Origin: a virus
Taxonomy: Duplodnaviria; Heunggongvirae; Uroviricota; Caudoviricetes
Virus record (IMG/VR): IMGVR_UViG_2695420403_000013
Span: 1 to 26,336 of that record
DNA: 26,336 bases
Strand: one strand, 5' to 3'
In this document: positions 1-24,215 of the stretch, piece by piece
Numbering within the stretch: the first letter of the stretch is position 1
Layout: each line of letters starts with the position of its first letter
Program-made: the position numbers and the translations under genes
Notes under the pieces: model-generated
The model's input: only the letters and a program-made list of their open reading frames with translations
Told to the model about the DNA's origin: nothing
The model's database searches: none

Positions 1-744
1 CAGAAGGATAAGTTCGGCGCGGGTAAGAACGGTTTTACCCGTGGTAACCCCCAGACCGGCACGCCTGCCACCGATCTGGATGATGACTACTTTGACATGT
101 TGCAGGAGGAACTTTGCAGCGTGGTGGAGGCATCCGGTGCCAGCCTGGAGAAGGGGCGGCACGACCAGTTACTTACCGCACTTCGCGCGCTGCTGTTAAG
201 CCGCAAGAATCCGTTTGGCGATATCAAATCGGATGGCACTGTGCAAACGGCTCTCGAAAACCTTGGTTTGGGAGAAGGCTCTGCATTACCTGTTGGTGTC
301 CCTGTTCCGTGGCCTTCAGCCACTCCGCCAACAGGCTGGCTGAAATGCAACGGAGCAGCTTTTTCTGCTGAAGAATACCCGGAACTGGCAAAGGCTTACC
401 CGACAAATAAATTGCCAGATTTACGTGGTGAGTTTATTCGTGGCTGGGATGACGGGCGTGGTATTGATGCTGGACGTGCTTTATTGAGCCTTCAGGCTGG
501 GATGCTGGAAAAACACCGCCATATTGTTGTTGCCAATGATGGTTACGACACAAAAGATGAATGGGAACTGGCTACGATTTTCAAAAAAACATACACACAA
601 GGACGGGGACTTGATGCCACAAATACAGGAGGGAGTCTGATCCCATCACCGACACTTCATTCACGAGGGAGTATCGGTAATACTGGCGGGAGTGAGACCC
701 GTCCACGAAATATTGCATTTAACTTTATCGTAAGGGCTGCATAA
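1..744 (+). CDS. Tail fibre C-terminal region with phage tail-collar-type receptor-binding domain; 5' end outside window
   Basis: Frame 1 is open from nt 1 to the TAA at 742-744. Collar-domain-like motifs [29 protein letters not shown] and [16 protein letters not shown]. Stop overlaps the next ATG (TAATG). Confidence 0.6.
251..276. repeat. Candidate DNA-invertase crossover site (hix/gix-like 26-mer), left copy
   Basis: ctctcgaaaaccTTggtttgggagaa. Core AAAACC-TT-GGTTT resembles the Hin/Gin site consensus as I recall it. 22/26 identical to the reverse complement of 2117..2142. Central TT lies at codon positions 2-3 of the Leu in the encoded ENLGLGE. Confidence 0.5.
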
Positions 745-1352
745 TGGATAACGCAGTATTAAATAGCGAGTTTATTGCCACGAAGGCGGGGAATATTACC
801 GTCTATAACTACGATGGTGAAACTCGGGAATATATTTCTGCATCAACTGAATATCTTGCAGTGGGTGTCGGTATTCCAGCATATTCCTGTTTAGACGCTC
901 CTGGTACATATAAGGCTGGTTATACAATTTGCCGTTCTGTAGATTTAAATTCATGGGAATATGTGCCAGACCATCGCGGTGAAATCGTCTATAACACCGA
1001 AACGGGAGATGCCAAAGAAATCACAGCACCGGGTGATCACCCCGAAAATACAACCACTATCGCCCCATTAACGCCATACGATAAATGGGATGGTGAGAAA
1101 TGGGTGACCGATACTGAGGCACAGCATAGCGCCGCAGTAGACGCGGCAGAAGCACAGCGTCAGTCACTGATTGATACTGCAATGGCTTCCATTAGTCTGA
1201 TTCAGCTGAAATTACAGGCCGGACGGAATCTGACGCAGTCAGAAACCAGCCGACTTAACACGGTGTTGGATTACATTGACGCGGTGACGGCAACAGATAC
1301 CAGCACCGCGCCGGATGTTATCTGGCCTGAACTGCCGGAGACTGCGCAATAA
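744..1352 (+). CDS. Tail fibre assembly protein (Tfa-like chaperone)
   Basis: 202 aa, directly follows the tail-fibre C-terminus with overlapping stop/start. C-terminal ...TSTAPDVIWPELPE is typical of Tfa proteins. Confidence 0.75.
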   Translation: MDNAVLNSEFIATKAGNITVYNYDGETREYISASTEYLAVGVGIPAYSCLDAPGTYKAGYTICRSVDLNSWEYVPDHRGEIVYNTETGDAKEITAPGDHPENTTTIAPLTPYDKWDGEKWVTDTEAQHSAAVDAAEAQRQSLIDTAMASISLIQLKLQAGRNLTQSETSRLNTVLDYIDAVTATDTSTAPDVIWPELPETAQ

Positions 1353-1521
1353 ACTCACCATCAATATATAAATCCCCCTGCTGTGTGTCAGCAGGGCATT
1401 CTTTCCATATTAATGATGGATGGAATCTTCCTTCAGGATTAATTTCCGTTATCTCTTCTACTTTATTTTCTTCAATTCTTGCCCACATATGAACCTCACC
1501 AGTAAATATAAACTGCGCCAT
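1318..1521 (-). CDS. Small ORF (67 aa) downstream of H; possible remnant or small accessory protein, function unknown
   Basis: ATG at 1519-1521 preceded by GGAG, overlaps the 3' end of H. The region is AT-rich and the ORF runs through the 1376-1396 hairpin, so the 3' part may not be coding. Confidence 0.25.
   Translation of the reverse strand: MAQFIFTGEVHMWARIEENKVEEITEINPEGRFHPSLIWKECPADTQQGDLYIDGEFIAQSPAVQAR
1376..1396. terminator. Stem-loop between the convergent tail-fibre modules, possible bidirectional terminator
   Basis: CCCTGCTG-tgtgt-CAGCAGGG, perfect 8-bp stem, 24 nt after the tfa stop, followed by cattctttcc. Confidence 0.4.
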
Positions 1522-3178
1522 CTGCTCCGGCACCCGACTGACCCGTTGATGAATTAGGACATAATCCAGCTCCGCCACCTCCAGGCCCAACTGCTGATAC
1601 CGCTTTTCCGTTAGCTGTATCTCTGAATGAACCTGCTCCTCCGGGGCCACCACCAGAACCACCATTACCAGCTCCCGATGCGGCAGAAGCAATGGAACCT
1701 GGAGAACCTGGCCCAAGCGATATATTAATTGTTCCCCCGACACCAACTGCGCCTAACCCTCCGGAAGGCTGGCCTCCGCTATAGCCTCCGGAAGCTGACA
1801 TGTAAGTCCCGAAACTGCTCGAGCCACCATTTTTACCGTTTACAGAAATACCAGACACAGGCGCACCACCGGTACCAACCGTAATCGAAACACTGTTTAT
1901 ACCAGTTAAATCTACCAGCCCCTCAGCAACTCCGCCCCCACCACCTCCTCCGCCACATGTAACGGCTGAAGCGGTTGTTGAACCTATCCCTCCTGACGCA
2001 CCGCCACCAATAACTTTGACGTAACATTTTCTTCCTTTGCGCAACTCTTCAGGAACAGTCCAGCTTGTTACTCCAGCCGTTGTGAAGGCAACCAGATTTC
2101 TGAACCCAAATGAACCTTCTCTCAAACCAAGGTATGCGAGAAGACCAGCTACATCCTTTCCACTCAAATTAGTCAGCGTATTGTCCAGCGGTTGTTTACC
2201 TGCTAGCGCATTAAGCATTGTCGTGGCAAAGTTCGGGTCATTCCCCAGCGCCGCCGCCAGTTCGTTCAGTGTATCCAGTGCCGCAGGTGCAGAACCCACC
2301 ATTGCTGCAATCGCTGATTTCACAAAAGCTGTAGTGGCAATCTGTGTATTGTTGACCGACTGTGCCGCAGTAGGTGCTGTTGGCGTTCCGGTGAGTGCCG
2401 GACTCGACAGCGGTGCTTTTAGTGCCAGCGCATTGTTAATGGTGGTACTGAATTTCGGGTCATTGTTAATGGCTTCGGCAATTTCTTTCAGTGTGTCCAG
2501 CGTGGCTGGCGCACCGTTAATCAGAGCAGTAATAGCGGCCTGAACAAACTCAGTGGTCGCAATCCGCGTGGTGTTATTTCCTGCTGCAGGCGTCGGCGCT
2601 TTTGGTTCTCCGGTAAATGTCGGATTATGTTTCTGCGCATACTGGGTATGAGGATCTTGTGCGGCAATGTGGTTTCTCATCTGGTCATCCACATACAGCT
2701 TTAATTCCAGGACTTCATCATCCACGTATTTACGGGTTGCCAGCACTACAGCAGGGTCGATTTTCAGGGTGATATTGTCCGTACTGCTGGTAATCAGCAC
2801 CATGCGCACGGTCTGGGTGCGCCCGCTGCCTTCAGCCAGTTGCGGCTTATAGCTTTCCGGGCAGTTGCCCACGGCAATCAATGCCCCGGACTCATCAAAC
2901 AGGCCCACTTCACGTATCCACCAACCGCCCTCGTTTTCAGGGATCACCTGTTCAGCAATAATCTGGCTGCTGTTCTGCGGGTCGATGTACAGCATATTCA
3001 GCGCAGCCCGGCGTTTCTCATTTACTAATGCTGTCTGCTTTGCGTCCGGCGTTGGCAATGTTCCGCCGCCATCGCCTACCGCCATATGGGTAATTTTTAG
3101 CGGCACACCGAGCGCGGCGGCGCTGGCAAGTTTCGCCGCGCCAATATCCGTCAGCAGGGTATAAAATTTTGTGCTCAT
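1496..3178 (-). CDS. H: Tail fibre protein, P2 gpH-like N-terminal/shaft region with a glycine-rich C-terminal domain
   Basis: 560 aa. N-terminus MSTKFYTLLTDIGAAKLASAA...MAVGDGGG...GGWWIREVGLFD resembles P2 gpH as recalled. Internal repeats (ALINGAPATLDTL / AAMVGSAPAALDTL). C-terminal ~170 aa is very Gly/Ser-rich. ATG overlaps the upstream gene's stop. Confidence 0.85.
   Translation of the reverse strand: MSTKFYTLLTDIGAAKLASAAALGVPLKITHMAVGDGGGTLPTPDAKQTALVNEKRRAALNMLYIDPQNSSQIIAEQVIPENEGGWWIREVGLFDESGALIAVGNCPESYKPQLAEGSGRTQTVRMVLITSSTDNITLKIDPAVVLATRKYVDDEVLELKLYVDDQMRNHIAAQDPHTQYAQKHNPTFTGEPKAPTPAAGNNTTRIATTEFVQAAITALINGAPATLDTLKEIAEAINNDPKFSTTINNALALKAPLSSPALTGTPTAPTAAQSVNNTQIATTAFVKSAIAAMVGSAPAALDTLNELAAALGNDPNFATTMLNALAGKQPLDNTLTNLSGKDVAGLLAYLGLREGSFGFRNLVAFTTAGVTSWTVPEELRKGRKCYVKVIGGGASGGIGSTTASAVTCGGGGGGGGVAEGLVDLTGINSVSITVGTGGAPVSGISVNGKNGGSSSFGTYMSASGGYSGGQPSGGLGAVGVGGTINISLGPGSPGSIASAASGAGNGGSGGGPGGAGSFRDTANGKAVSAVGPGGGGAGLCPNSSTGQSGAGADGAVYIYW
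2117..2142. repeat. Candidate DNA-invertase crossover site, right copy, inside H
   Basis: ttctctcaaaccAAggtatgcgagaa. Its reverse complement ttctcgcataccTTggtttgagagaa matches 251..276 at 22/26. Centre lies at codon positions 2-3 of Leu350 of H (LLAYLGLRE). Confidence 0.5.
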
Positions 3179-3780
3179 GGATTCACTCTCATTGTGTCAA
3201 TAACATGGACCGCCCCGCCTTCATGCGCGGTGCCGCCAGAAATAATTGTTTCGTTGATATACGGATAGATCGTAATTTCTTCGCCAAGATAGCTTGCAGC
3301 CCCCACCCAATATGGACCGCTGGTCTGCAGGTTGATGGACATGCCGATCATGTGGCGGCTACATGGTTTGGCATCGCTTATCAGTCGCTCAAGTTCCAGA
3401 TAGGTATCTTCAGTGATGCCCTGGTCCTGCACGCCGATATCCAGACGAAACGTGCCCGGTGTTTCTCCGGTATGCCACCACTCAATAATGCGGATCAGAA
3501 AGCCGAACGGCTCCACCACCCGCCGCACGGCACTGGTGGTCCCTTTATGCTGATGAATATAAAAAGCATCCTTCACCACCTGGCGCTTGACGCTTTCTGT
3601 CCAGCTCTCGTCCCAGCGATCCACAGAGAACGCCCAGGCGAGATAAGGCAGGAAACTGACCGGACAGGTTGCCGGATTCCACAAGTCACGCAGCGGCACC
3701 TGCAGATCAGTAATCCCGCTGCAGGTTTGCGCCAGTCGGCGCTCCAGTGAAGTTGAACCCGGTGGCAGCAGACTATTCAT
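3175..3780 (-). CDS. I: Baseplate assembly protein, gpI-like
   Basis: 201 aa, between J-like and H-like genes, overlapping stop/start with both neighbours. Confidence 0.8.
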   Translation of the reverse strand: MNSLLPPGSTSLERRLAQTCSGITDLQVPLRDLWNPATCPVSFLPYLAWAFSVDRWDESWTESVKRQVVKDAFYIHQHKGTTSAVRRVVEPFGFLIRIIEWWHTGETPGTFRLDIGVQDQGITEDTYLELERLISDAKPCSRHMIGMSINLQTSGPYWVGAASYLGEEITIYPYINETIISGGTAHEGGAVHVIDTMRVNP

Positions 3781-4681
3781 CCGTTCCTCCGTTGGTTACG
3801 CTCCACTGCGTACATGATGCCGCCTGCGTTTTGTTCAGAACCACATCCGCCAGCGGAGAAGCCAGTTCCACACGTTGAACACCCTCAACATGCAGCGCGG
3901 CAAAAATGGCGCTACGGCGAATATCCCGACCAAGCCGCGTCTGACTGGCAATGTACCTCTGCAGGCTGGCTTTTGCCGCTGCCATTACCGGCTCTGCTTC
4001 CGGTCCCGGATAGAGAAAAATGGTGGCTTCCACGCGGTACGGGATGATTTCCGCGCTGCGAACCGTCAGACGGTCAGCCACCGGGCGGACATTCTCACTG
4101 TTCAGTGCTTTCTCCACCACATCCAGCAGGTCTTTTTCTGCTGTTCCGTCGCCTTCGCGGCTAAGGACTGTCAGCACCACCTCTGCAGGTGCCGGACTGG
4201 TTGCACTGGCATCCGCCACCCGACCGTCGGCGCTTCGGGCATGAAATTCATAAGCGGCAGTTGGTCCCGCAACTGAAAGCCCCTCAAAGGCTGCAGGCAC
4301 ACGCAGGCGTAACGCTTCATCGCTTTCCATCACTGCTGCAACGGGCGGCACAGCGTCATTATCAGCAGGCGTCACCGTCAGGCGTTTCACGTTGTAGTTG
4401 GCAGCGATCTGGTCAAGATCGCCGCCCATCGCGTAAGCCACCATTACCGCCTGCGCGGCTTCGTTAATGCGCTGACGCAGAAGCAACTCACGGTAAGCGT
4501 TCTCCTGCAACAATTTGGTGACGGGTTCAGATTCCAGTTCCAGCGTGCGGATCACTGCTTCCTGCTCATCTTTCGGATGAAGCGCCACAAATTCTGCCTT
4601 GCGTTCGGCAAGCAGCGTCTCAAAGTCCGGCACATCCACAATCTGCGGCGCAGGCAACTGCGAAAGGTCAATCACTGCCAT
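3773..4681 (-). CDS. J: Baseplate assembly protein, gpJ-like
   Basis: Start moved to ATG at 4679-4681 (MAVIDLSQLP...), which overlaps the stop of W. The listed ORF start at 4720 is an upstream extension. Confidence 0.85.
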   Translation of the reverse strand: MAVIDLSQLPAPQIVDVPDFETLLAERKAEFVALHPKDEQEAVIRTLELESEPVTKLLQENAYRELLLRQRINEAAQAVMVAYAMGGDLDQIAANYNVKRLTVTPADNDAVPPVAAVMESDEALRLRVPAAFEGLSVAGPTAAYEFHARSADGRVADASATSPAPAEVVLTVLSREGDGTAEKDLLDVVEKALNSENVRPVADRLTVRSAEIIPYRVEATIFLYPGPEAEPVMAAAKASLQRYIASQTRLGRDIRRSAIFAALHVEGVQRVELASPLADVVLNKTQAASCTQWSVTNGGTDE

Positions 4682-5027
4682 TCTCTGCTCCTGTTGATAC
4701 GGAAAGGGAAACAGGCACACCGTTATTCCGCCGCCCGGTCAGCTCCACCACCATTGAACCGTCAAAATTGCTGTGGATGGTGATGGAATCCAGCGTCAGC
4801 CGTGGCTCCCAGCGACTCAGCGCCACATACACTGCCGACATGACCTGCAGGCGTAATGCCGGATTTTGTGGCTGGTCTATCAGTGCCGACAGCAGGGAAC
4901 CATATTCACGACGGGCAATGCGACTACCCTGTGGTGTCAGCAGAATGTCCCGCACCGACTGGCGCAGATGGTCAATATCAGTAATGGCTTTGCCGCTGGT
5001 ATTGTTCATCCCGCTATAAAGCGTCAT
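4668..5027 (-). CDS. W: Baseplate assembly protein, gpW-like (gp25/GPW family)
   Basis: 119 aa. MTLYSGMN...DILLTPQGSRIARREYGSLLSALIDQP matches my recollection of P2 gpW. Confidence 0.85.
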   Translation of the reverse strand: MTLYSGMNNTSGKAITDIDHLRQSVRDILLTPQGSRIARREYGSLLSALIDQPQNPALRLQVMSAVYVALSRWEPRLTLDSITIHSNFDGSMVVELTGRRNNGVPVSLSVSTGAENGSD

Positions 5028-5602
5028 ACCGGGCCTCCAGTTGTATCGCCGCCTTTCAGGACGCCAGTATGCTGATGCGCATCAACCACGATCCCGTTAG
5101 AACTCATCGCTCCGCCGCCCTGGGTAATGCCACCATTGATCACCACTTCACTGTTAATGCGCGTGCGGTCAGCCTCCAGTACAAACTCACTGGTTTTCAT
5201 GGTGATGTTGTCAGCGGCCTCAATGACCATTGATTTGATGCCCCTGACATACCAGCGCCCGGTGGCGGGTTCGTATTCAAACCAGCCACCGTCAGGATGT
5301 TCTATCACGCAGGCGTCCGCCGACGTCGACGGTGGCGCGAACTGATTCGAATAGATGGCGGGTAACGCAAAGGCGGTTTCCAGATTGCCGCCCAGACTCA
5401 GCAGCACCACCTGCTCACCTTCCGATGGTCGCCACCATGTGCGAGCATTACCCGCGCGCAGCGTCAGCCAGTTAATCCAGTTGGTTTCAAGGTCGCCCGT
5501 TTTCACCCGACAAAGCCAGTTTTCCCGGTCCACTTCGGTGACTACACCTATGCGGATCAGATTGGTGATAAGGCGCATGATTTCGGTTAGTTGTGCGTTC
5601 AT
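5024..5602 (-). CDS. V: Baseplate spike/assembly protein, gpV-like
   Basis: Start placed at ATG 5600-5602 (MNAQLTEIMRLI...), giving 192 aa. The 273-aa listed ORF has an N-terminal extension reaching into the AT-rich intergenic region. ...TWW.PSEGEQV... resembles P2 gpV. Confidence 0.85.
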   Translation of the reverse strand: MNAQLTEIMRLITNLIRIGVVTEVDRENWLCRVKTGDLETNWINWLTLRAGNARTWWRPSEGEQVVLLSLGGNLETAFALPAIYSNQFAPPSTSADACVIEHPDGGWFEYEPATGRWYVRGIKSMVIEAADNITMKTSEFVLEADRTRINSEVVINGGITQGGGAMSSNGIVVDAHQHTGVLKGGDTTGGPV

Positions 5603-5648
5603 AGATATATGATGACAGCTGAAAACTTGTTTATAACTTCTTGCAAAT

Positions 5649-5666
5649 TGTGGTATCGATGGTACA
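5649..5666. promoter_or_regulatory. TGT-N12-ACA dyad in the V upstream region, candidate late-activator (Ogr/B-type) site
   Basis: tgtggtatcgatggtaca. P2-family late promoters carry a TGT-N12-ACA element upstream; spacing to the V start is not a clean fit. Confidence 0.3.
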
Positions 5667-5705
5667 AATTGATAAAAGGATAAAAAACAACCAATAGGTG
5701 GATAA

Positions 5706-6512
5706 ATGAGTGTTATGAATCCAATAAGTTCTAATATATTTAATGCTGAATTTTTAAACACCCCGGCAGCGGCACTTGCCGCATGGATTTCCATTATTGG
5801 AGCTGTTATAACTTTGGTGACGATAGTTATAAGAGCACTATTCAAATATAGAAAATCTCATGATGTAATTTTGAAAAAATCAGGAATACCTGCGTTTATA
5901 TTAAATTTTTTTCTTATACGAATATCATTAAAAAGGCTGCCTACTATCACATGGGCTGAAAAATCAATCACGGTTCTCTTTTCACTTCTTTTTTTGTGTG
6001 CAATTTATATTTTTGGTCCAGTTTTCATCCAAGCCATTAGAACCCCACCAAATAGCACATTGCTTTATTGGATAAAGTCCGGTGAATCATTTTATATGTC
6101 AAAAAAACTGGCGACTGCAGCTACAATATTAACCACTCCTGATTGGGAAATATCAAAGGATGATTGCGAAGAGTCATCCTCTGCCAGTACAGAGAAGTAC
6201 AAATCATTAACTATCGAACATAAAGAAATTCTTTGTAAACTACTAACCACTGATGAAGGGAATGCTTACATTGATGAAGAAGTCAAGAATTTCGTTAAAG
6301 ACAAATTCTTTATCTATTCCTTTGCCCCAACAACCATATTTATTCTATTATGGATTTCTTTGGGTTTTATACTGACCATTCACTATTCTAAAAAAGTTAG
6401 GAAATATATTCTGACTGAACAAAAAAATGCAATTCATTGGGCATATGGTGAATTCAAGACAGAAGGAATCTATTCAATATATCAAGAGTTAGAACGTAAG
6501 ACTCACCATTAA
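5706..6512 (+). CDS. Cargo gene: multi-pass inner-membrane protein of unknown function
   Basis: 268 aa, AT-rich, opposite strand to the flanking late operons. AGGTGG ribosome-binding site before the ATG. About 4 hydrophobic helices plus a ~90-aa acidic soluble loop. Confidence 0.6.
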   Translation: MSVMNPISSNIFNAEFLNTPAAALAAWISIIGAVITLVTIVIRALFKYRKSHDVILKKSGIPAFILNFFLIRISLKRLPTITWAEKSITVLFSLLFLCAIYIFGPVFIQAIRTPPNSTLLYWIKSGESFYMSKKLATAATILTTPDWEISKDDCEESSSASTEKYKSLTIEHKEILCKLLTTDEGNAYIDEEVKNFVKDKFFIYSFAPTTIFILLWISLGFILTIHYSKKVRKYILTEQKNAIHWAYGEFKTEGIYSIYQELERKTHH

Positions 6513-6900
6513 GACCCAACAAACGACGCTCTGCGTAACGCACTTCTGGTCCTTTGCGGCTGACGCGATCGCGCAGGCCATAATGGTGAACGCGGGCAAT
6601 GCGCTGCACCTTACTTTCAAACTGTACGCTGGCAGAGTCGGCGCTGGCGGCGGTTTTCAGGTATTTGGTGGTGCGCAGCTTTGCAAACATCTGACGTTTG
6701 ATGCGGCCTTTTTTACTGCGCGCCGTGACCTTGCGCGGTTCATAACTGCTGCCATCTGGATTGCGCTGCATCCTGATATTCTGCTGCTGTGTCCGGCGCA
6801 GTTCCTGCGCCAGCTGGCGCATCATGCGGCTTCTTGCGACTGGTTCCAGATTCGCCAGTAAGGCACTAAGCCAGTCGTCCACCTTCTGCAGTTCAGCCAC
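6454..6900 (-). CDS. S: Tail completion protein, gpS-like
   Basis: 148 aa, position between R and V. The last ~19 codons lie in the AT-rich cargo DNA and overlap the 3' end of the 5706..6512 gene. Confidence 0.8.
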   Translation of the reverse strand: MAELQKVDDWLSALLANLEPVARSRMMRQLAQELRRTQQQNIRMQRNPDGSSYEPRKVTARSKKGRIKRQMFAKLRTTKYLKTAASADSASVQFESKVQRIARVHHYGLRDRVSRKGPEVRYAERRLLGLNGESYVLTLDILNRFLLS

Positions 6901-7345
6901 GTTTCACCGTCCACATTTCTTCAGGTTCATCGGGTTCTGCTACAGCTTCAACGCTCGACACACTGCCGTCAGTGCTGACCAGCACACGTTCCGTCAGTTG
7001 CAGGTTAAGGCTGATATCACAGACATCGTTACGCAGAATATCCACCTCAAAGGTAAATAGTTTTTCCCGTAACGCCGGGTTATTGATGGCATCGGGCTGG
7101 TTATCCCGCAGCCACAGCAAAACCGGGGCCATCAGCAGATTCTGGTCGCCGCTGAAATCCTCAATCACCGCGTTCAGGGTGTAACGGTACTCCCACGACA
7201 TGGAGCTGGCCCCCGTGGCAACCAGCGAACCGTTATCCACAAACAGATGCAGTTTGTCCGGGTTATTGCGGACATAAGGCACCGCTTTACTGAGGGCGTG
7301 GCGCAGGGATTGTGGTTTGTTCACTGTTTCGCTCCTGACACGCAA
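6893..7345 (-). CDS. R: Tail completion protein, gpR-like
   Basis: 150 aa. ...KPQSLRHALSKAV...NPDKLHLFVDNGS... resembles P2 gpR. The true start may be an internal GTG. Confidence 0.8.
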   Translation of the reverse strand: MRVRSETVNKPQSLRHALSKAVPYVRNNPDKLHLFVDNGSLVATGASSMSWEYRYTLNAVIEDFSGDQNLLMAPVLLWLRDNQPDAINNPALREKLFTFEVDILRNDVCDISLNLQLTERVLVSTDGSVSSVEAVAEPDEPEEMWTVKRG

Positions 7346-7577
7346 TAATCATGTCCACTTTGTCTGCACAGACCGCCCAGGCGGCCTCCGTTTCATCCAG
7401 CAACGCGTTCAGATCACCGTTAGTGCGCGGCGTTGCCTGAGCCAGCCGACACGGCGTCACTCGCGGACAACCACTGACGGTAAGCTGTACCTCCGGTGAG
7501 TGCCGGACGTTCCCGCAGCCGGGTAATGTCAGCAGGCAAAGGAGTATCAGCCCAGCGGCGTAAATCCTCGTTCTCAC
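7287..7577 (-). CDS. lysC: Outer-membrane spanin lipoprotein (LysC/Rz1-like), embedded out of frame in LysB and R
   Basis: Lipobox LLTLPGCG after a hydrophobic signal sequence, Pro-rich, nested in the spanin gene as in P2 lysC. Confidence 0.6.
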   Translation of the reverse strand: MRTRIYAAGLILLCLLTLPGCGNVRHSPEVQLTVSGCPRVTPCRLAQATPRTNGDLNALLDETEAAWAVCADKVDMIIACQERNSEQTTIPAPRPQ

Positions 7578-7848
7578 GTTTCAGTTCCTCGATCCGGTGT
7601 TGTCGTTGTCTCAGCAGTGCGCTGGTCTGTTCTGCTTCGGCATAGAGCCGCGCCTGCTCCAGGTTATTGGTTTCAGTCAGAATGGACAGACCGATCAGCT
7701 GGCTGTTTTTCTTCGTCAGTTCCTGCGCTTTACTTTTCAGCGCCGCGCGCTGCGTTTCGATGGTGTGGCTGGCGCTGTTAAGCCGCCACGACTGCCAGCC
7801 CAGCGCAACGAGTGCCAGCGCCACCACTACTGCCAGCGCACGCGTCAT
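7420..7848 (-). CDS. lysB: Inner-membrane spanin (LysB/Rz-like)
   Basis: 142 aa with an N-terminal TM helix (ALAVVVALALVALGW) followed by a coiled-coil region. Immediately downstream of the endolysin. Confidence 0.7.
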   Translation of the reverse strand: MTRALAVVVALALVALGWQSWRLNSASHTIETQRAALKSKAQELTKKNSQLIGLSILTETNNLEQARLYAEAEQTSALLRQRQHRIEELKRENEDLRRWADTPLPADITRLRERPALTGGTAYRQWLSASDAVSAGSGNAAH

Positions 7849-8360
7849 AGTCCAGCTCCTTTAAGGCACCAGGCCATCTCCCGCGCACGGCGGTTATCCA
7901 GCCCCTGATTAAAAACACCTTTCACATAAACCCAGCGCGGCAACTGTCGGCACGCATCCGCCCAGCGCCGCTGATTGAGCAATTTCACCAGCGTGGAACT
8001 GCAGGCATTGCCCGTTCCCACGTTGAAGGCAAACGACACCGCAGCGTCATACACCTTCTGCGGCGGCTGTTGCTTCACACACCTTTCCAGCGCCCGCTCC
8101 ACACGCAGCACGTTGGAGATCAGCCCTTCCGCTGCCTGTCGTTCCGTAATGGTTTTGCCCGGGATGACGCCCGATGTATTACCAATGCCGTCGGTCCAGA
8201 CACCCGCGCTGCACTGATACGGCTGCAGACGACAGCCTTCGTAATCAGCAATCAGTTTCAGCCCCTCCACGGAGGTGTGAAGCTGCTGAAAACCCGGCAG
8301 CGTGGCAGTAATAGCCAGCACGGTCCCGACAAGGCAGCGTTTAACGATTGATGGATTCAT
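7845..8360 (-). CDS. K: Endolysin (phage lysozyme, gpK-like) with N-terminal signal-anchor
   Basis: 171 aa. Hydrophobic N-terminus VGTVLAITATLPG, then EGLKLIADYEGCRLQPYQCSAGVWTDGIGNT, a lysozyme-like catalytic region. Confidence 0.8.
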   Translation of the reverse strand: MNPSIVKRCLVGTVLAITATLPGFQQLHTSVEGLKLIADYEGCRLQPYQCSAGVWTDGIGNTSGVIPGKTITERQAAEGLISNVLRVERALERCVKQQPPQKVYDAAVSFAFNVGTGNACSSTLVKLLNQRRWADACRQLPRWVYVKGVFNQGLDNRRAREMAWCLKGAGL

Positions 8361-8556
8361 AGTCCTCCCGCGAGATCTGCCCGTCGCGCAGAAGCTGGTA
8401 GGCTTTGTGTTTGTAGTACCAGTTGATAGCCAGCATCAGCACACCAATCATCAGGCCGCCCAGCGTTGAGGCATCCTTGATGGACAAATCGCCCAGCCAG
8501 GCCAGCACGACGGCGATGCAATACGTGATAAAGGCGCTGATTCGCTCAAGCGTCAT
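8341..8556 (-). CDS. Y: Holin (gpY position)
   Basis: 71 aa, two hydrophobic helices and a charged C-terminus, directly upstream of the endolysin. Confidence 0.65.
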   Translation of the reverse strand: MTLERISAFITYCIAVVLAWLGDLSIKDASTLGGLMIGVLMLAINWYYKHKAYQLLRDGQISREDYESINR

Positions 8557-8559
8557 AAT

Positions 8560-8763
8560 TCAGTCCCATAGCTGGACGGTCTGCACGGTGGTGGTTGTCG
8601 GTATGTCCGGCAGCTCCACCTGCAACCCGTGAGGTAAAAAAGGGCCGTATTCGGCAAGCCCCGGATTTGCCTTCAGTACCTGCTCCGTGACACCCTGCGT
8701 GCGCCCGTAATGACGCCAGCAAAGCGCGTCCACCGTGTCATACTGATGCGCACGCACTTTCAT
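8560..8763 (-). CDS. X: Tail protein X-like
   Basis: 67 aa, same length and position as P2 gpX. Confidence 0.7.
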   Translation of the reverse strand: MKVRAHQYDTVDALCWRHYGRTQGVTEQVLKANPGLAEYGPFLPHGLQVELPDIPTTTTVQTVQLWD

Positions 8764-9227
8764 CAGATAAGCTCCACTGTGCAGTGCGGCGCATCCTGCA
8801 CCCGGCTGATGGCCCAGCGGGCGTCACGCCACAAATCACCGCTTGCTTCCGCCAGTTCCTCGCCCCGCTTCACACCGGATGCCGTGGCGTCATAGTCCTG
8901 ATAACGCTCGTTGAGCATGGCGCGTGCCCAGCAGTAAACCGCGTTGAAATAGTGATGAATGCGCTCACTTTTGCCGTCCAGCTGTTCCGCCGGAACCTCA
9001 GCCAGCGACACATACCCCAGCATCTGCTGACGTCTGCGAAACTCATACAGCTCTGCGTTGACCTCCGAAATTGCCGACAGCGCAACCTGCTTTAAACGCG
9101 GCTGCGTCACCGTGCCGTCAGTGCGCATGACACAGCGAAACTCCGACAGGTCCACATCAGGCCAGAACGGCGTGTTTCTGATGATTTCCGCCTGTTCCGG
9201 TGCCTGTTCTGGCGCAACAAACTTCAT
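8763..9227 (-). CDS. L: Head completion/stabilisation protein, gpL-like
   Basis: Start moved to ATG 9225-9227 (MKFVAPEQ...), preceded by AGGAG. The listed ORF start at 9290 is an extension. Confidence 0.8.
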   Translation of the reverse strand: MKFVAPEQAPEQAEIIRNTPFWPDVDLSEFRCVMRTDGTVTQPRLKQVALSAISEVNAELYEFRRRQQMLGYVSLAEVPAEQLDGKSERIHHYFNAVYCWARAMLNERYQDYDATASGVKRGEELAEASGDLWRDARWAISRVQDAPHCTVELI

Positions 9228-14860: not shown

Positions 14861-16543
14861 TTACAAATACCGTCTAACACGTATTTTATTAATCTTCGAC
14901 TCATTTCCAATTCTTATCAAAGCATTTCTCGCTTTTTCTCCGATGCGTTTCATTCTATCTGAACCATTGCTATACCCACCAAACTTAAGAGCAGTGGCTA
15001 TTATTGAATCACCACCTTCAAGAATGACTTTTTTAAATAAATCATAGTAGTCATCCTCTGAGGCAGCATCCAATATTTCCTCGTGCCTATCAGACCAACC
15101 ATTCTGACTTGATAATTTTATTAGAACATCCTTTATAGAACCATCCAGATTTAAAGTAATAGAATAATCTTGGATTTTTGACTTTAACTCAGCATCTTTT
15201 ATAGGATGAACATTCATGTAAATAGATTGGACATATTCCTTAAGAGCATCATTGCCGTAATTAATAAATTTACTTATTAATTCACTTGCTTTAATATTTT
15301 CATCTAAATCTCTATACAGTCCGACAACACTATCCAAGTCACTTGGAGTTACATACTCTATCCCACCAACCACCGCTTGATATAGATTATCAACGACCTG
15401 ATTTCGGTTATCTTCAAATGAATTATAGAAAAGCTTCCATGCTTCAAACAGTGAACCTCGCTTACTATCACGGATAAGTTCATCATTTCTTAGACTTACT
15501 TGCCTTTGAAAATTGTTCATATCAATATATCCATGCTTAACCATGTCTATAAGGACTTCATCAAGTTCGTTTGTTTTTTTATAACCATATATAAGCAAAG
15601 TATTAAGCCATTTTTTTCCTTTTCCATCCTCTTTTTCATCACGCACATAGATATTTCTCATATTTCTAATATACTCCAATGATGGTACATCTCCATCTGG
15701 AGTAAATGCGTAATGACTCCAACAATACAAAGTTAAGGAGCGTGCGACTTCATTTGCAATTTTATCAAAATTAATGTTAATAGCAGGTAACAAGGCTAGC
15801 AAAAACCGCTCTATTTTTTTCAGTATCCGAATATTTTTAATACCTAGAGAAATGGAGTATTTGCTTAATAATTTATGAACATCAGAATTATTTTTATATG
15901 CTATAGCTGCACATTCTTCTGGCGTAGGGTTATAGGTAATCTCTCTATCAATAACCTTTTCTTTATAAGTGGAGTAATCATCCATACCACTTGTCCCATT
16001 ATTAAGTAAAAGAACCACCTTACAATTTTTTTGTTCTTTCAATAAAGAAACCAACCCTAAGACATCTTTCACTTCTAAATTTTTACCACGTCTTTCTAAG
16101 TCATCTATGACTACAATAACATTAGTAATTGACATAAATGACATTGACTCAAGTGTCGTAGCGAAATTTTTCACAACAGGTGTTTCTTTTAACAAACGAG
16201 CGGTCTTTCTAGTGCAGGATTCAAGAAGTCCCTTTGTATTTTGGGTTGCTGTTTTTAAATTAGGTTTATTTCCAATAAAATCTTTTGTAATTGTATTTTC
16301 AAAGATGGAATATTTTAATGCGTCCAATGAATTAACACCAAAAAGAGAGACGTAACTATATCTATTAAATGCAATCTTATTCTTATTTTCCTTTAAGAAA
16401 GTATTCCAAGTATAGGTTTTCCCAATCCCCCATTCACCCTGAATAGCCATTACCTCAGGTTCTGCAGATGAAATAAAGTCTGACAACTGTTCTTTAATAT
16501 AGTCCAATGACATGCACATTCTCCGAGATAGATAGTCATCCAT
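14861..16543 (-). CDS. Cargo gene: KAP-family P-loop NTPase (PifA-like), candidate anti-phage/exclusion protein
   Basis: Walker A QGEWGIGKT (Trp-containing G-x-W-G-x-G-K-T typical of KAP NTPases) and Walker B VVIDDLERR. AT-rich. Probable true start is ATG 16511-16513 (GGAG ribosome-binding site), downstream of a TATAAT at 16544-16549. Confidence 0.6.
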   Translation of the reverse strand: MDDYLSRRMCMSLDYIKEQLSDFISSAEPEVMAIQGEWGIGKTYTWNTFLKENKNKIAFNRYSYVSLFGVNSLDALKYSIFENTITKDFIGNKPNLKTATQNTKGLLESCTRKTARLLKETPVVKNFATTLESMSFMSITNVIVVIDDLERRGKNLEVKDVLGLVSLLKEQKNCKVVLLLNNGTSGMDDYSTYKEKVIDREITYNPTPEECAAIAYKNNSDVHKLLSKYSISLGIKNIRILKKIERFLLALLPAININFDKIANEVARSLTLYCWSHYAFTPDGDVPSLEYIRNMRNIYVRDEKEDGKGKKWLNTLLIYGYKKTNELDEVLIDMVKHGYIDMNNFQRQVSLRNDELIRDSKRGSLFEAWKLFYNSFEDNRNQVVDNLYQAVVGGIEYVTPSDLDSVVGLYRDLDENIKASELISKFINYGNDALKEYVQSIYMNVHPIKDAELKSKIQDYSITLNLDGSIKDVLIKLSSQNGWSDRHEEILDAASEDDYYDLFKKVILEGGDSIIATALKFGGYSNGSDRMKRIGEKARNALIRIGNESKINKIRVRRYL

Positions 16544-23270: not shown

Positions 23271-24215
23271 ATGTCAACTCAAAAATTCACATTTCGCCAT
23301 ATGAATGACGATATGAAAGCCGTTGTCATACAGAATCGCGGTGGTCAGAAAGTAATTGAGCGGATACTCATGGCTTATGGCTTCAAGTCACGCCAGGCAT
23401 TCTGTAACCATCTAGGTATTTCCCAAAGCACGATGGCTAACAGATATGCCCGCGATACATTTCCTGCAGATTGGGTAGTTATCTGCTCAATGGAAACAGG
23501 AGCATCAATTAAATGGCTAGCATTTGGTTCAGATGATGACGAGCAAATGCCATCCCCTTCACCAGAACAACATGTTGAAACACACTCCGAAGATGGTTCT
23601 TATCATGATGTTCACTATAAACAACAAAAGTTCGACAATGAAAACTCCGTTGATTTTTCTCGAGGTGGCAAGGAAGCAATAGAACGAATTGTTAAGGCTT
23701 ACGGTTATAAGACGCGCCAAGCCTTAGCTGATCACTTAGGTATTTCAAAAAGCACATTAGCCACAAGATATATGCGTGATGTCTTTCCTTCAGACTGGAT
23801 AATTAAGTGCGCTCTAGAAACGGGTACTTCACTAACGTGGCTAACTACTGGTAAAGGCCCAAAGTTTGACGATGCAAGAAATGATGTAATTGCTATTACA
23901 CGCAAAAAAATCACTGATGGGAATCTATTTGAGTCAGATTTCTATATGCTTGATAAAGCATTAATACCAGACTCAATCCAATTACCACTGATTGTCAGTA
24001 CCCCAAAAAAAACATACCTATGTGATCAGTCATTTGATGAAATTACAGATGGTAAATGGATTGTTGAAATAGAAGGAAAAGTGAGCATTCGAACCCTAAC
24101 TAGGATACCTGTAGGAAGATTAAAAATCTCAGACAATTATTTATCGTTTGAATGTAATATTTCAGACATTGATGTTATTGCTAAATGCAAATTTTTGCTT
24201 ATAGAAGAATTATAA
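23271..24215 (+). CDS. cI: CI-type immunity repressor with a tandemly duplicated N-terminal HTH domain
   Basis: 314 aa. Two ~70-aa repeats (IERILMAYGFKSRQAFCNHLGISQSTMANRY...METGASIKWL and IERIVKAYGYKTRQALADHLGISKSTLATRY...LETGTSLTWL), each resembling the 186 CI N-domain, plus a CI-like C-terminal domain. Confidence 0.7.
   Translation: MSTQKFTFRHMNDDMKAVVIQNRGGQKVIERILMAYGFKSRQAFCNHLGISQSTMANRYARDTFPADWVVICSMETGASIKWLAFGSDDDEQMPSPSPEQHVETHSEDGSYHDVHYKQQKFDNENSVDFSRGGKEAIERIVKAYGYKTRQALADHLGISKSTLATRYMRDVFPSDWIIKCALETGTSLTWLTTGKGPKFDDARNDVIAITRKKITDGNLFESDFYMLDKALIPDSIQLPLIVSTPKKTYLCDQSFDEITDGKWIVEIEGKVSIRTLTRIPVGRLKISDNYLSFECNISDIDVIAKCKFLLIEEL

Follow-up and report, generated by a model that had tools for sequence, protein, structure and literature searches.

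The virus record IMGVR_UViG_2695420403_000013 (Caudoviricetes), analyzed here over its positions 1-26,336 and referred to as the window, consists for the most part of a P2/186-like prophage of Escherichia coli, and our comparisons suggest very strongly that its positions 263-2130 form an invertible tail-fibre cassette served by a serine invertase of the Pin/Cin/Gin ('Din') family. This proposal is based on the crossover sites, the reading frames, the existence of the cassette in both orientations and the invertase genes of its relatives. In the arrangement that we propose, the promoter, the start codon and the first 350 residues of the fibre gene H would lie outside the cassette, which itself would carry two promoterless, convergent C-termini, a collar-domain tip together with the tail-fibre assembly chaperone Tfa and, facing it, a glycine-rich tip. 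Either set would be expressed only from the promoter of H or from that of stfP, the fibre gene of the e14 prophage, and exchanging them may alter the host range of the phage; as assembled in the window, H bears the glycine-rich tip. The same logic, known from the Mu G, P1 C and e14 P segments, had been put forward in an initial annotation made from the sequence alone, and it is supported by the occurrence of both orientations, by sites of the pix/cix/gix type and by an invertase gene beside the left site in related prophages.

The cassette is bounded by an inverted pair of 26-bp sequences, each consisting of imperfect 12-bp half-sites around a common TT/AA core, as in the sites of Din systems. 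The left 26-mer (251-276) reads CTCTCGAAAACC-TT-GGTTTGGGAGAA and the reverse complement of the right one (2117-2142) reads TTCTCGCATACC-TT-GGTTTGAGAGAA; the two agree at 22 of 26 positions, in keeping with the initial annotation, and they coincide with the longest inverted repeat that a repeat finder detected in positions 1-5000 (arms 252-281 and 2112-2141, 30 nt, 87% complementary). Searching the 26-kb window with the Pin/Cin/Gin consensus TTCTCNNAAACCWWGGTTTNNGAGAA, allowing up to three mismatches, returned exactly two matches, namely both sites with one mismatch each, and none of 100 shuffled windows contained a match. Alignment to known sites showed that the left site and pixL of Escherichia coli K-12 e14 agree in all 26 positions and that both sites share their build with P1 cixL (CAATCCTAAACC-TT-GGTTTAAGAGAA) and Mu gix (TTATCCAAAACC-TC-GGTTTACAGGAA), the latter two taken from annotated phage genomes. 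Moreover, inversion of the e14 P segment has been mapped experimentally to a 16-nt repeat, TTGGTTTGGGAGAAGG (PMC12529663), which in the window occupies positions 263-278.

The extent of homology around these sites is in line with a role in recombination. When positions 1-3200 were compared by megablast with 5,426 complete E. coli genomes, homology broke at 257-263 and 2130-2141, that is, at the two sites, and in many P2-like phages it stops at 2112-2124. The original suggestion that identity between the two sites ends at the borders of the 26-mers describes the outer sides well, where the edge is sharp, and needs correction for the inner sides, where identity continues for about 5 nt because both variable parts start with EGS codons; beyond that point the two fibre genes share no homology. 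Outer half-sites fall into three types, CTCTCGAAAACC on the stfP side, TTCTCGCATACC on the P2 H side and TTTTCTTAAACG on the invertase side, the last being common to both phage types. The H-side half of the right site recurs in other P2-like loci (L004, L008 from phage KP12, L010, L012 and L016; compared loci are numbered in this way throughout), and in loci with the opposite cassette orientation the inner halves are swapped precisely at the TT/AA core, in P2-like and e14-like hosts alike.

Both sites lie within coding sequence and encode a similar peptide, which raises the question of whether the 26-bp match merely reflects a conserved Leu-Gly-Leu-Gly-Glu-Gly-Ser motif of fibre genes with no part in recombination. 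On the plus strand, TT 263-264 provides codon positions 2-3 of a Leu in ...ENLGLGEGS, and on the minus strand the core at 2129-2130 provides the same positions of Leu350 of H in ...AYLGLREGS, so that the codon phase noted initially was recovered from both frames. We regard a mere coding motif as practically out of the question: the repeat exists at the DNA level and has palindromic half-sites like those of pix, cix and gix, the homology of thousands of genomes breaks at both sites, and the motif explanation is already refuted by flipped junctions in other genomes and by the exchange of half-sites at the core.

Those flipped junctions provide evidence for a switch. Reverse-complementing positions 265-2128 in silico yields an open 509-aa fibre in which H is fused to the collar tip, followed by Tfa, and a 298-aa fusion of stfP to the glycine-rich tip. 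Two other assemblies (L010, L012) encode proteins that equal the H-collar product over 509 of 509 residues, and downstream of them come an identical Tfa, a 188-aa Resolvase+HTH_7 protein and the tail sheath gene; the stfP-glycine-rich product matches proteins in L011, L014 and L018 at 297 of 298 residues. The initial annotation had foreseen that inversion would join the H shaft in frame to the collar C-terminus and Tfa, and its interpretation is thus supported by a protein that exists in nature. Among the complete E. coli genomes, the flipped junction was found in 41 and the junction of the window in eight, uninterrupted in both cases. The 1,864-bp cassette (265-2128) recurs with one or two base differences from that of the window in twelve loci, in both orientations; these loci span P2-like and e14-like prophages as well as a third background (L009), and the borders of the shared segment lie exactly at the crossover cores. 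Across genomes, P2-like prophages thus show the cassette either way round, and so do e14-like ones. In the third background the outer half-sites are different, and a gene for a 182-aa resolvase adjoins host genes.

The gene content of the cassette (Table 1) is that of a tail-fibre switch, in which the sites lie inside a fibre gene, the fusion is in frame either way and Tfa is co-oriented with the collar tip. All reading frames of the cassette are intact. A plus-strand frame enters at the left edge of the window, where positions 1-262 match PHROG tail-fibre N-terminal families, and stops at 744; its collar C-terminus is joined to P2 H in L010, L012 and L016 and to stfP in L001 and L015. The 202-aa Tfa that follows is identical in 10 of 10 loci compared. 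On the minus strand, H (3178-1496) encodes 560 residues with a Phage_tail_fib N-terminus and a Gly_rich_2 C-terminus and, judging by the order of Pfam families, is cotranscribed with I, J, W and V, the baseplate genes upstream of it; in L011, L014 and L018 the glycine-rich C-terminus is instead joined to stfP in a 307-aa protein. According to Pfam, the two tips belong to unrelated folds (Collar and Gly_rich_2), and presumably they bind different receptors. Pfam and PHROG scans revealed no recognisable Tfa for the glycine-rich tip and no family match for the 67-aa ORF downstream of it. We considered this ORF as a possible chaperone of the glycine-rich tip and are inclined to doubt such a role, given the lack of a family match and the terminator-like hairpin inside it, which also stands between the convergent gene sets.

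Table 1. Features of the fibre region at the left end of the window
Feature	Position	Strand	Remarks
Constant N-terminal part of e14-type stfP (its 3' part, codons 10-97)	1..262	+	Outside the cassette; from another prophage than the rest of the window
Left crossover site	251..276		Core TT 263-264; outer half CTCTCGAAAACC, stfP-type; inner half GGTTTGGGAGAA, collar end of the cassette
Variable fibre C-terminus 1, tail-collar domain	265..744	+	Without a start codon of its own; Pfam Collar, E 1.7e-15; PHROG tail collar fibre protein, E 5e-75
Tfa, tail-fibre assembly chaperone for C-terminus 1	744..1352	+	Pfam Caudo_TAP, E 8e-32; PHROG tail fiber assembly, E 4e-97
67-aa ORF, status uncertain	1318..1521	-	Downstream of the glycine-rich C-terminus; gene call (67 or 115 aa) in many related records
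Terminator-like hairpin	1376..1396	both strands scored	Stem of 8 bp, 6 of them GC; tails rich in T on either strand; consensus match only
Variable fibre C-terminus 2, glycine-rich	1496..2128	-	Joined to P2 H in this orientation; Pfam Gly_rich_2, E 2e-9
Secondary (quasi) crossover site	2020..2045		Core TT 2032-2033, within the glycine-rich coding region
Right crossover site	2117..2142		Core AA 2129-2130; inner half TTCTCTCAAACC, glycine-rich end; outer half GGTATGCGAGAA, P2-H-type
Constant N-terminal part of P2-type fibre H, residues 1-349	2131..3178	-	Bears the start codon; Pfam Phage_tail_fib, E 4e-65

Two local differences within the glycine-rich coding region deserve mention. At position 1722 the window carries a base private to its contig (ACA to ATA, Thr486Ile in H) that differs from all twelve cassettes compared and is either a private mutation or a consensus error; being private, it is uninformative as to which prophage supplied the cassette. 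In strain 2018-11-3CC, a 95-bp block corresponding to window 2034-2128 (L002 7777-7871) is exactly reverse-complemented between the cores of the quasi-site and the right site, which scrambles 32 residues of the glycine-rich tip and leaves the frame open. With the two sites 97 bp apart, such an inversion spans far less DNA than serine invertases usually turn. We rejected a programmed third state of the switch, since the inverted block is confined to this strain and a twin record, with two other P2-like relatives keeping the orientation of the window, and since the latter gives a sensible N-terminus of Gly_rich_2.

In canonical relatives, a Pin/Cin/Gin-like invertase gene stands directly outside the left site. 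P2-like loci of this kind (2018-11-3CC, L002; G5, L004; phage KP12, L008) read H, site, cassette, site, a gene for a 188-aa Resolvase+HTH_7 protein and tail sheath, and e14-like loci with Mu-type tail genes (S1-IND-01-A, L001) read ymfQ, a short fibre gene, site, cassette, site and pinE, as does e14 of K-12. A Din invertase is encoded in every canonical relative (L001, L002, L004, L008 and L009-L018); these enzymes are 85% identical to K-12 PinE, 77% to Cin and 73% to Gin, and all start with (M/V)LIGYVRVST, a motif that we take to hold the catalytic serine. When the invertase genes are aligned over 130 nt, the mean column identity is 88%; the aligned region includes the stretch annotated as an enhancer in P1 (cin nt 19-90), a conservation to be read with the fact that this stretch is also coding. 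Some related loci show decay: in strain G5 an IS1 element lies inside the Tfa gene (L004 3592-4971), in L012 (8021-9828) no tail genes are called between the invertase gene and gpU, and in L015 (7455-7859) the invertase is truncated to 134 aa.

By analogy with Gin and Hin, we envisage that invertase dimers bound to each 26-bp site would assemble into an invertasome together with Fis bound to an enhancer in the invertase gene's 5' part, that both sites would be cut with a 2-nt stagger at the TT/AA core, and that one pair of half-sites would rotate by 180 degrees before the ends are rejoined. As the common Leu-Gly-Leu motif would be cut in one and the same codon phase at both sites, either tip would be fused in frame to H.

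Several observations weigh against such a switch in the window itself. No serine recombinase is encoded there, as already noted in the initial annotation and as found by tblastn with seven invertases (best E 0.6); the enhancer is missing along with the invertase gene; the one assembly available for the strain shows a single orientation; and the left outer half-site is of the stfP type, as opposed to the invertase-side TTTTCTTAAACG present in every canonical P2-like relative, so that, as assembled, the window holds no canonical self-contained P2 switch. The absence of the invertase is explained by the fact that the prophage sequence of this contig stops at the left site: where canonical relatives continue with the invertase gene and then the sheath gene, the contig has 259 bases of e14 stfP (window 1-257 and two more) and then ends. 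The window starts 2 bases from that end, hence nothing can be sought just upstream in this record. The lack of an invertase and the single orientation, together with two departures from the A-tract in the outer half of the right site (CATACC), could also indicate that the cassette is a fossil whose relic sites no longer recombine in this lineage. We consider this unlikely, as the same H-side half-site is found in loci of both orientations, the reading frames are all intact, and the private 95-bp inversion of 2018-11-3CC begins precisely at the right-site core, which suggests recent cleavage, replication template switching being another possible cause. In addition, invertases of other prophages work in trans, as has been reported for the Pin enzyme PinQ of another prophage, which inverts the e14 P segment (PMC12529663).

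The composition of the left end calls for a separate explanation. The 262 nt of the 289-nt stfP constant part that lie in the window are 100% identical to K-12 e14 stfP at the DNA level, and positions 1-2130 equal, save one base, the e14-like prophage of S1-IND-01-A, in which ymfQ lies directly upstream. From 263 onwards the window equals the P2-like locus of 2018-11-3CC save three bases, once the private 95-bp inversion is allowed for, and positions 2143-9000 match that prophage at 100.0% (megablast). With 1-262 belonging to stfP and the rest to a P2-like prophage, the window is thus a hybrid of stfP constant part, cassette and reversed P2 H constant part. It follows that the initial view of inversion as a re-tipping of H holds for H itself and is incomplete for the window as assembled, where the fibre of a second phage, stfP, would be re-tipped as well and a flip would swap tips between the fibres of two phages. 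A single contig on record, CYDW01000014.1 (107 kb; draft assembly GCA_001283865.2), encodes exactly this H protein.

We believe that the left junction is somewhat likelier to be a repeat-induced join in this draft assembly than a real rearrangement. Save one base, the cassette is identical in P2-like and e14-like prophages, so that a strain with both would hold an exact, flipping 1.9-kb repeat, in which a short-read assembler or scaffolder could pass from H across the cassette and come out in stfP; the contig extends for 259 bases beyond the cassette and no further, a pattern to be expected if a short unique node had been attached at a repeat, and a hybrid with this cassette was found in none of the complete E. 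coli genomes. The competing possibility, which we hold only tentatively, is that the hybrid is real and records recombination between the fibre cassettes of two unrelated co-resident prophages, one e14-like and one P2-like, brought about either by an invertase at the crossover sites or by RecA over the identical 1.9 kb. The chromosome would then have been inverted between the prophages over several hundred kilobases, leaving one cassette between two fibre genes and the other between two invertase genes; the 'double-headed' cassette of the window, having neither invertase nor enhancer nearby, would probably be locked or slow. What speaks for a real exchange, and against an assembly join, is that the contig runs through the cassette unbroken, which graph assemblers usually do not achieve for an exact two-copy repeat, that identical cassettes bounded exactly at the core dinucleotides in unrelated prophages suggest that such exchanges happen, and that a finished genome, FDAARGOS_1287, has the same hybrid architecture.

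FDAARGOS_1287 (NZ_CP070071.1, ~83-132 kb of the record; L021 22251-24103 and L022 20635-22585) was found by searching with the two flanks only, not with the cassette. At one junction it has ymfQ and the stfP constant part, a cassette and the reversed P2 H constant part, with both fusions in frame, and at the reciprocal junction, 45 kb away, pinE, a cassette and the P2 invertase and sheath genes; the four outer half-sites are distributed reciprocally, which indicates an inversion between tandem prophages, and re-inverting the 45-kb interval restores two canonical tandem prophages near ssrA. However, this is the only e14-P2 hybrid among the 5,426 complete genomes, and the cassette of the window occurs in no such hybrid there. 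The distance also differs. In typical strains, the P2-like element, placed between rcdA and ybjL by its integrase and ogr-side flank, and the e14-like carriers of the cassette beside paoD/yagP (e14 of K-12 itself being at icd) both read clockwise, so that recombination between them would yield an inversion of ~0.3-0.6 Mb rather than a lethal deletion. Such a spacing is far for an enhancer-dependent invertase compared with the 45 kb of the tandem prophages, and RecA acting on the 1.9-kb exact inverted repeat could span it. If the exchange is real, one flip would re-tip the fibres of both phages, both invertase genes would lie at the reciprocal junction, and hybrids of this kind would be intermediates in moving identical cassettes between phage families. 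Our literature search returned nothing relevant on inter-prophage inversion at fibre cassettes, and no paper under the accession of the assembly or of the contig. A further arrangement was seen in L023 (10998-12769, NZ_CP024232.1) and about a dozen other records, several of them named as enterotoxigenic E. coli, in which a fibre cassette has pinE genes on both sides, with no phage structural genes near and adjoining a LEM-3-like GIY-YIG gene and the Avs2 defence gene; this locus may have arisen as the 'two-invertase' product when a similar exchange took place, or it may be a remnant.

Among known systems, the nearest counterparts of the locus are the P segment of e14 and the invertible fibre loci of P2-like prophages. 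With the P segment of K-12 e14 it shares the left site, the stfP constant part as left flank, the TT core and a layout of constant part, two convergent variable sets and invertase; it differs in that K-12 holds stfP/tfaP and stfE/tfaE where the window has the collar tip with Tfa and the glycine-rich tip, and in that the right flank is a P2-type H gene and not pinE. With P2-like invertible loci (L002, L004, L010, L012, L016 and KP12) it shares the map position, in which H is followed by cassette, invertase and sheath gene FI, whereas the invertase side is replaced in the window by e14 stfP. Fels-2 with its Fin invertase is another P2-like prophage with an invertible tail-fibre locus. The pairing of a collar tip and Tfa with a glycine-rich tip that has no recognisable chaperone was not described for this cassette in the literature searched. 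Both orientations have been found to coexist in clonal cultures for P2-like prophages of the enteropathogenic E. coli (EPEC) strain E2348/69 and for e14 (PMC4272514). The EPEC locus has three repeats that give rise to 2.2-kb and 1.8-kb inversions (PMC4272514); here, by contrast, the only third site is the weak quasi-site, which lies 97 bp from the right site and was used a single time, in one lineage. In addition, DNA invertases beside genes that are inverted have been noted in the Z/fun hotspot of P2-like phages (bioRxiv 10.1101/2024.10.15.618418).

The resemblance to Mu G/Gin and P1 C/Cin lies in a constant fibre N-terminus that is joined to alternative C-termini with co-oriented chaperones, and in 26-bp sites made of 12-bp half-sites. 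A further, presumed common feature is an enhancer within the invertase gene, as annotated in P1. Mu and P1 belong to different phage families, and in Mu the gix core is TC and the two sites are perfect repeats. Around the cix sites of P1 there are inverted repeats of 0.6 kb. In the Min system of plasmid p15B and in Cin quasi-site recombination (Sandmeier, Iida and colleagues), fibre-gene crossover sites are reported to serve as joints for cassette exchange between unrelated phages; weak secondary sites with the same core dinucleotide are also used in these systems, and Min has six sites that generate many isomers in one element. The window, in contrast to Min, has two proper sites, and an exchange, if it took place, was one between two separate chromosomal prophages.

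The remainder of the window supports its assignment to the P2/186-like prophages (Peduoviridae). Between ~2.1 and 26.3 kb, Pfam families identify H and the baseplate, lysis, head and replication genes up to CI and the integrase, including gpA, Q, P, O, N, M, L, X, the lysis genes, R, S, V, W, J and I, CI and CII of the 186 type, and the integrase; the tail genes from FI to ogr, expected on the left side of the cassette, are absent from this contig. Beside the portal gene, at a known cargo hotspot of P2, lies a gene for a 560-aa KAP-family P-loop NTPase (14861-16543, minus strand) that matches the PADLOC candidate defence family PDC-S49 (E 8e-25). A DUF6216 gene (5706-6512, plus strand) stands on the opposite strand between the tail-completion and baseplate genes and looks like a moron. 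The CI repressor ORF (23271-24215, plus strand) encodes 314 aa, with two stretches that match the CI helix-turn-helix domain, where the repressors of L025-L029 have 189-198 aa; this length may stem from a duplication, or from counting from the earliest start codon in a long ORF.

Finally, the switch itself adds little to what is known, as invertase-driven fibre switching became textbook knowledge with Mu, P1 and e14, and experiments have revealed it in P2-like prophages too; only the possible exchange between prophages has some novelty, and it is unproven for this window. Since invertible cassettes common to several prophages constitute exact, flipping repeats, draft assemblies around them are unreliable unless long reads are used, which is a warning for genome scans and annotation in their neighbourhood. 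For the biology of these phages, FDAARGOS_1287 shows that recombination between cassettes happens at least between tandem prophages. Together with a cassette that is common to at least three prophage backgrounds, it suggests that crossover sites serve as joints at which receptor-binding modules are swapped and that they may also invert segments of the chromosome between co-resident prophages.

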